From Escherichia coli (GTDB lineage: Bacteria; Pseudomonadota; Gammaproteobacteria; Enterobacterales; Enterobacteriaceae), in NCBI RefSeq assembly GCF_016026235.1, contig NZ_CP065613.1: a stretch of DNA of 64,000 nucleotides; one strand, written 5' to 3'. The position numbers and the translations under genes are program-made. Under the pieces are notes generated by a model that saw nothing but the letters and a program-made list of their open reading frames with translations, was not told where the DNA came from and did not search any database. Shown here piece by piece: positions 28,341-28,421 of the stretch. How positions within the stretch are numbered: the first letter of the stretch is position 1; every line of letters begins with the position of its first letter.

Positions 28341-28369
28341 AAACCCTTTCTCATCAGTCACTTAAAAAA

Positions 28370-28385
28370 TGACACGGCGATTGCT
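28370..28385 (+). promoter_or_regulatory. candidate sigma-54 promoter upstream of lfgBCD (TGACACG-N4-TTGCT)
   Basis: Exact -24/-12 spacing but an A at the usually invariant second G of the -24 GG. Confidence 0.3.
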
Positions 28386-28421
28386 TAGCGTATGCGGATT
28401 GAAGCAGGAGTGACGCAGGAA

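Follow-up and report, generated by a model that had tools for sequence, protein, structure and literature searches.

The DNA analysed here is a stretch of 64,000 nucleotides of Escherichia coli (contig NZ_CP065613.1 of assembly GCF_016026235.1), hereafter called the window, which carries a Flag-2 lateral flagellar locus. Our subject is P_lfgB, a σ54-type promoter element between the divergent genes lfgA and lfgB of this locus. lfgA (27603–28340, minus strand; RefSeq start ATG 28340) encodes an FlgA-type P-ring chaperone, and lfgB (28422–28757, plus strand) encodes the Flag-2 proximal rod protein FlgB of 111 amino acids. With the RefSeq lfgA start, the intergenic gap is 28341–28421 (81 bp). The original prediction, which was made from the letters of the sequence alone, had given the gap as 60 bp; this needs correction, as the GTG at 28361 that would serve as an alternative lfgA start is not conserved within E. 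coli and reads GTC in four of six other strains.

P_lfgB (TGACACGGCGATTGCT) occupies 28370–28385 on the plus strand, the strand of lfgB, with its first base 52 nt ahead of ATG 28422; the region as read in the window is ...CATCAGTCACTTAAAAAATGACACGGCGATTGCTTAGCGTATGCGGATTGAAGCAGGAGTGACGCAGGAAATGGGG.... Compared with the consensus TGGCACG-N4-TTGCW, the element has a single departure, an A in place of G at 28372, and it matches 11 of the 12 specified positions, including the full −12 TTGCT and the CAC that follows the GG. The spacing is exact, with the GC of the −12 motif lying exactly 10 bp past the GG. The −24 motif reads TGACAC, with no GG within TGGCAC, which makes P_lfgB a mutated member of its class and not an intact one, the ancestral form being TGGCACGGCGATTGCT. 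The motif is thus as originally described: TGACACG-N4-TTGCT with exact spacing and a G-to-A change at the −24 GG. Its context is that of orthologous loci, upstream of a lateral flgB operon, divergent from flgA_L and in a cluster that encodes LafK. A scan for σ70-like sites was empty on both strands between 28200 and 28560, and the only two matches to Rfam covariance models between 27500 and 29000 were far below the gathering threshold. For the divergent lfgA, neither a σ70-like nor a σ54-like promoter was found on the minus strand of the 81-bp gap.

Two in-frame ATGs, at 28392 and 28422, are available to lfgB. The motif MG(I/L/M)SF (MGISF in the window) is kept at the 28422 position in all 29 enterobacterial loci, whereas the ATG 30 nt upstream (28392) is found only in Escherichia-like sequences and is missing in Escherichia sp. 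MOD1; in two Citrobacter loci a stop at −6 cuts it off. The geometry of σ54 promoters predicts a transcription start at about 28396 (28394–28398, plus strand), 12 nt after the C of the −12 GC, with ATG 28392 sitting 4 nt upstream of it. The predicted leader would be 26 nt long, and the computed offset from the start codon is −26 in Escherichia and Citrobacter loci. A Shine–Dalgarno sequence, AGGAG (28406–28410, plus strand), is conserved in Escherichia, Citrobacter and Phytobacter. The main LfgB protein cluster in public databases has 111 amino acids, and 28422 is also the start given by RefSeq; when LfgB was used to search for homologues, enterobacterial proteins were the only ones listed. 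We conclude that lfgB starts at ATG 28422, as the original prediction had argued, and not at 28392, which is unconserved and precedes the predicted transcription start.

Conservation of the element and rarity of the A allele

By itself, the motif match of P_lfgB is at chance level. For the exact string, the expectation per window is 0.01. Allowing up to one mismatch to the consensus gives three matches (1.18 expected; three are reached in 13 of 100 shuffles), and allowing up to two gives 13, against 16.4 expected. The reality of the element rests instead on its conservation across loci. In a cross-species scan with one genome per species, 79 loci encode an LfgB relative, and 70 of these carry TGGCA[CT]-N5-..TG[CT] within 200 nt upstream of flgB, with a chance expectation of about 0.005 per locus. 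The genera that bear the element are Escherichia, Citrobacter, Phytobacter, Enterobacter, Buttiauxella, Pantoea, Leminorella, Shewanella, Marinobacter, Methylophaga, Nitrosomonas and Sphingomonas. When 18 sequences from at least nine genera are aligned, the only non-coding blocks without variation are TGGCA and TTGC, from which the window alone departs, at the second G. The comparison across Flag-2 loci, which had been proposed along with the motif, therefore bears it out on the very point that could have overturned it. In Pseudocitrobacter faecalis (L008) and P. vendiensis (L011), LfgB is identical to that of E. coli and the intergenic DNA nearly so, and a record labelled ‘Chryseobacterium sp. 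18061’ (L024) carries a Flag-2 locus of enterobacterial type; the cause is either a horizontal transfer in recent times or a mislabelling or contamination of the assemblies.

Within E. coli, six other strains chosen across the divergence range all read TGGCA(C) at −24. A total of 1279 complete E. coli genomes carry the Flag-2 region, and the exact 40-mer with A was found in one of them, FDAARGOS_943. An exact match to the same haplotype with G is present in 540 genomes and a second GG haplotype in 535, so that GG haplotypes account for at least 1075 of the 1279; the remaining 203 have minor haplotypes that were not read one by one, two of which, sampled from UCPROB-002 and PSUO2, have G. Because the A is confined to one genome in 1279 while the other E. 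coli sampled have G, we take the A at 28372 to be a derived allele specific to one lineage. The original prediction had left the non-consensus −24 as a source of uncertainty; it is better described as a derived change at a base that wild-type σ54 requires than as a tolerated feature of this class of promoter. Read from these comparisons, P_lfgB belongs to the class-II LafK/σ54 promoter type and bears a lineage-specific lesion at the −24 G.

A weight matrix was built from the orthologous loci, the sites of which had been chosen for having TGGCA. Only three sites in the 64 kb score above 12 bits with this matrix and all three are upstream of Flag-2 genes. P_lfgB scores 17.6 bits and would score 24.3 bits with G, a cost of 6.7 bits for the G-to-A change. 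The second site, P_lafB (TGGCACGCCTTTTGCC; 40117–40132, plus strand), has the canonical GG, lies 32 nt upstream of lafB/fliD and scores 25.5 bits (matrix site 40109–40140). P_lafB and P_lfgB correspond to the two lateral σ54 sites of Vibrio (lafB and flgB2). A hairpin with a T-run that resembles a lafA terminator, together with a REP-like element, precedes P_lafB at 40004–40033. The third site (CGGCACGCTTATTGCA; 26711–26726, minus strand) starts with C (CGGCAC type), scores 13.0 bits (matrix site 26703–26734, minus strand) and stands 35 nt before the gene for the Flag-2 lysine-N-methylase (ATG 26676). Its conservation, along with that of a dyad upstream of it, in other species (see below) suggests that the methylase, which presumably modifies flagellin, may also belong to the LafK tier.

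The window also encodes the cognate AAA+ activator for such a promoter. lafK (13405–14382, plus strand) is intact and specifies a σ54 activator of 325 amino acids with Sigma54_activat (1e-63), AAA_lid_14 and HTH_8 domains and no receiver domain. This layout, AAA+ plus HTH_8 without a receiver, is that of PspF, and LafK has been classed as a PspF-like activator that lacks a signal domain (PMC3162934). Experimental data are available for the orthologous promoters. σ54 sites have been listed for the lateral flgB2 and lafB genes of Vibrio parahaemolyticus, and gel shifts show RpoN bound to the flgB2 promoter (PMC9817140). In Aeromonas hydrophila, mutation of lafK lowers the activity of the class-II promoter PflgB_L from 970 Miller units to 20 (PMC5013049). 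P_lfgB shares with flgB_L (flgB2, VPA0264) of V. parahaemolyticus and PflgB_L of A. hydrophila the divergence of flgA_L from flgBCD..., a −24/−12 element 25–40 nt before the start codon, the presence of lafK in the cluster and an upstream dyad, GGAA-N7-TTCC (see below). It differs from flgB_L of Vibrio in having GA instead of GG at −24 and in the position of the dyad, at −66 instead of −56. RpoN binding and LafK dependence are experimental findings in Vibrio and Aeromonas, and would extend to E. coli by orthology. E. coli Flag-2 is often cryptic or decayed (PMC6993521). The comparative paper on Flag-2 makes no mention of promoters.

A candidate LafK enhancer upstream of the element

The dyad upstream of P_lfgB, GGAAATACAACTTCC (GGAA-N7-TTCC; 28304–28318), starts 66 bp upstream of the −24 T; here and below, distances are counted from the first base of the −24 hexamer. 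Its centre lies at about −85 from the predicted transcription start, inside codons 8–13 of lfgA. Perfect dyads are present in non-coding DNA 55 bp upstream of each of the two other σ54-type sites of the window: GGAAACGCCATTTCC (40062–40076) at P_lafB, with an extra half-site (TTCCGCCAG; 40050–40058) beside it, and GGAAA-N5-TTTCC (26767–26781) at the methylase promoter. The general form at the three sites is GGAA(A/G)-N5-(T/C)TTCC, with half-sites 10 bp apart, an arrangement that suits a dimeric helix–turn–helix protein. Exact GGAAA-N5-TTTCC occurs twice in the window (0.07 expected). Strict GGAA-N7-TTCC dyads number four, of which the three σ54-type sites account for three, at upstream distances of 55 or 66 bp. 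The fourth (31235–31249), like two dyads in a Vibrio campbellii record (L095; 41885–41899 and 45630–45644), has no σ54-like site at the usual distance; such dyads may be chance matches or have another role. The methylase site and its dyad are both conserved in Escherichia whittamii, Pseudocitrobacter, Phytobacter and Citrobacter amalonaticus.

The same dyad recurs outside the window. In 32 of 33 LafK-type loci it is found ahead of lfgB between −66 and −69, with a spacer that varies freely, and in Marinobacter at −76, whereas none of 37 distant flgB loci that bear a σ54 site contains a strict dyad within the 160 bp searched. In total, the LafK-type loci contain 63 strict dyads in 202 kb (about 3 expected), 49 of which are located 50–79 bp upstream of a σ54-like site; the distant loci contain six in 288 kb, none associated with such a site. 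At the second σ54-type sites beyond lfgN (in Pseudocitrobacter, Escherichia whittamii, Phytobacter, Citrobacter, Buttiauxella and Leminorella) the dyad is at −55 or at −65 to −67, offsets that are one helical turn apart. The Vibrio loci were obtained by scanning metagenomes for the exact pattern and through records filed in the plasmid collection. At −56 the dyad is found both on a Vibrio-type contig, which carries the published flgB2 site letter for letter, and before flgB_L of V. campbellii; the lafB site of the latter, AGGCAC-N5-CTTGCG, is preceded by a dyad at −68. In Aeromonas caviae, the polar flgB promoter includes a σ54 site and lacks the dyad.

Four of the five matches from the metagenome scan were unrelated chance matches. 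The plasmid-collection records NZ_CP050465.1 (a 2.06-Mb V. campbellii replicon; L093/L095) and NZ_AP026896.1 (a 4.94-Mb Aeromonas caviae replicon; L094) are chromosomes, and plasmid-based counts should allow for chromosomes filed as plasmids. A 9-mer, TTCCGCCWG, had been considered as the upstream motif (10 occurrences, 1.45 expected) and was replaced by the dyad, which accounts for the 9-mer and is kept from genus to genus. The distance from the lfgA start to the dyad was dropped as evidence because lfgA start codons are ambiguous in other genera.

Between the dyad and the −24 motif is a tentative core for integration host factor (IHF), CATCAGTCACTTA (28352–28364, plus strand), which matches seven of the nine specified positions of WATCAANNNNTTR. 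Matches of at least seven in nine are found at −18 or −19 in 26 of 29 related enterobacterial loci (shuffled mean 0.94) for what is a degenerate motif, and the Vibrio loci have no clear match to the IHF core. We put forward a role for IHF at P_lfgB as a hypothesis. The pspA promoter of E. coli is a σ54 promoter driven by PspF, with upstream sites and an IHF site between. The layout proposed for P_lfgB (enhancer, IHF-like site and −24/−12 element) would be the same in kind, with a dyad that differs in sequence from the psp sites and an IHF site represented by a consensus match.

GGAA-N7-TTCC is the probable LafK enhancer, LafK being the obvious candidate for a protein that binds it. We lean, with some reserve, towards a broader reading, in which the dyad would be a previously undefined LafK enhancer that marks every LafK/σ54 lateral promoter from E. 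coli to Vibrio and Shewanella, placed on one helix face at −55/−66 and, at flgB, written into the first codons of flgA. Were this true, the LfgA signal peptide would have to be written around the dyad, and the G-to-A change in the window would be a natural knock-out of one member of the LafK regulon. The dyad could instead reflect a constraint on the LfgA signal peptide or be the site of another regulator, which we consider unlikely. In its favour, the lfgB-proximal dyad always lies in lfgA codons, in coding sequence that usually also encodes a recurrent R-K-x-x-F motif, and no paper describing a LafK site was found in the literature searched, the coverage of which left out key older papers. 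A signal-peptide constraint does not, however, account for the presence of the same dyad at P_lafB and the methylase promoter, where the DNA is non-coding and the two offsets are identical, or for its presence at P_lafB of Vibrio. The codons themselves also speak against it. The encoded residues vary (R/G/W, K/N and L/P/R), while the dyad nucleotides GG, AA, TTC and C are fixed and Arg is always written as the rare AGG or CGG, which points to selection on this part of lfgA as DNA rather than as protein. The quantization of the offsets by one helical turn, and the absence of the dyad from σ54 flgB promoters of systems that are not of the LafK type, likewise favour the candidate enhancer.

Effect of the −24 change and state of the Flag-2 locus

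The base changed in the window, the second G of the −24 GG, is one that is read by the RpoN box of σ54. In a 2025 study of randomised −24 sequences, wild-type E. coli σ54 preferred GG, and a GA-type variant (ATGAGA for CTGGTA) had about 1.4% activity with wild-type σ54 and good activity with the R456H mutant (PMC12096077). The GA-type −24 promoters engineered for σ54 R456H have the same GG-to-GA change as P_lfgB; they are synthetic nifH variants paired with a mutant σ factor, whereas the change in the window is natural (PMC12096077). The other two Flag-2 σ54-type sites of the window strain keep GG, which argues that its σ54 is of normal specificity. Closed-complex formation and operon expression in this strain are most likely to be strongly reduced and, given the role of the mutated base, LafK has probably lost proper control of the lfgB operon. 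The original prediction, that the element if functional places the rod/hook operon under LafK control, therefore holds in part: the conservation in 70 of 79 loci, the intact LafK and the orthologue data support the element as the σ54 promoter of the lfgB operon, and the GA allele probably impairs that control.

The surrounding locus has suffered other damage. Between 27000 and 30000 the window and E. coli FDAARGOS_943 (NZ_CP065615.1) show 100% identity; elsewhere the two differ in insertion sequence (IS) content and at ∼0.05–0.07% of bases, so that the window comes from a sister isolate of FDAARGOS_943 or from a separate assembly. Relative to other E. coli, which have a 1203-bp flgE at this site, a deletion of 1232 bp (junction 29938–29950, plus strand) has removed the hook gene lfgE except for its last ∼69 nt. 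The deletion occurred between short ATCAGGCC direct repeats beside a REP-like palindrome. A copy of ISEc60 (IS4-like; 25092–26386) splits the lysine-N-methylase gene in the window, an insertion absent from the 99.9%-identical FDAARGOS_943; apart from lfgE and the methylase gene, the Flag-2 genes of the window are intact. Both the lfgE deletion and the A allele are also present in FDAARGOS_943, which has lesions of its own, namely ISEc60 in flgH and in a glycosyltransferase gene, an extra IS5 and a stop in flgL. Since the A allele and the lfgE deletion are common to both genomes while the IS insertions differ, the two shared lesions are older than the IS events, and the IS elements have moved independently in the two sister lineages. 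Erosion of Flag-2 loci by deletions and IS elements has been described (PMC6993521), and because the same lineage has deleted lfgE, we favour reading the G-to-A change as one of the lesions of a Flag-2 system that has ceased to function. The two genomes also differ in the copy number of a tandem array of ∼97-bp repeats between lfgJ and lfgK (33773–34062 in the window); related units of ∼90 bp occur in other intergenic gaps, the lfiM–lafK gap among them, at 2597–2731, 5923–6013, 6653–6781 and 13187–13282.

The sequence, its conservation, the rarity of the allele and the gene and domain content were observed directly, and together they lead us to read P_lfgB, with a probability of roughly 0.8, as the class-II σ54 promoter of lfgBCD(E)FGHIJ, an orthologue of the LafK/RpoN-dependent flgB_L promoter that has most likely been crippled by the −24 G-to-A change in a decaying Flag-2 system. 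For the ancestral form, we infer that σ54 RNA polymerase would dock on TGGCAC-N5-TTGC as a closed complex and that LafK would bind GGAA-N7-TTCC about 85 bp upstream of the start, inside the first lfgA codons. The DNA between, which contains the IHF-like core, would bend, and LafK would remodel the closed complex using ATP. Transcription would then begin at about 28396, giving a 26-nt leader with AGGAG, and translation would proceed from ATG 28422. In the lineage of the window, G to A at 28372 would weaken the closed complex and operon expression would fall.

Several points weigh against this reading. The construct with 1.4% activity is a nifH promoter variant with two further base changes, compared with the single change here, and the eleven other consensus positions of P_lfgB are perfect, which could leave residual activity. 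The matrix cost of 6.7 bits is partly built in by the preselection of sites for TGGCA. The orthologous loci share descent, and their counts overstate the number of independent observations. For E. coli Flag-2 itself, σ54/LafK dependence is predicted by orthology, and the decay of the locus is at an early stage, with all but lfgE and the methylase intact.

Some of these points favour an element that still works in attenuated form, with lfgB under LafK at a lower level. The 11 matching positions, the intact dyad and IHF-like core, and the intact LafK and remaining rod and ring genes would all fit such a state. We nevertheless think it improbable, and more so than the rival account of the dyad, as the G is invariant in every element-bearing orthologue and in at least 1075 E. 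coli genomes, wild-type σ54 discriminates strongly against GA at −24 (PMC12096077) and the deletion of lfgE leaves no obvious selection for operon expression. An error of sequencing or assembly, with TGGCAC as the true sequence, could be suspected for a single base found in one lineage only; this is very hard to reconcile with the presence of the A in both the window and NZ_CP065615.1, two sequences that differ in IS positions, in the flgL stop and at ∼0.05–0.07% of bases. We attach equally little weight to a gain of function, in which the change would create or improve a σ70 promoter with ATGACA (28369–28374) as its −35 hexamer and so transfer lfgB to housekeeping transcription. ATGACA matches five of the six bases of TTGACA, against four for the ancestral ATGGCA, but it has no acceptable −10 hexamer at a spacing of 15–18 bp, and the empty σ70 scan of 28200–28560 led us to reject a σ70 role for the mutant −24. 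Least probable of all is a chance resemblance with no promoter at the site. The match statistics alone would allow it, with 1.18 matches of at most one mismatch expected per window, three or more in 13 of 100 shuffles and those of at most two mismatches at the chance level; it is contradicted by the conservation of position, orientation and sequence from Escherichia to Shewanella, Nitrosomonas and Sphingomonas and by the experimental data for the Vibrio and Aeromonas orthologues (PMC9817140; PMC5013049).

P_lfgB is thus probably a promoter of a known kind with a natural knock-down allele. The allele itself is of modest interest. The comparison assigns the rod/hook operon of E. coli Flag-2 to the LafK/σ54 tier on more than a single motif match, and the window offers a case from nature in which a promoter of a cryptic flagellar system decays as genes of the system are lost. 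Point mutations in promoters are a less visible route of erosion, which surveys of gene content would miss. The dyad, together with a −24/−12 element 55 or 66 bp away, would provide a simple signature for predicting LafK regulons; it predicts where LafK binds and is the part most worth following up at the bench.

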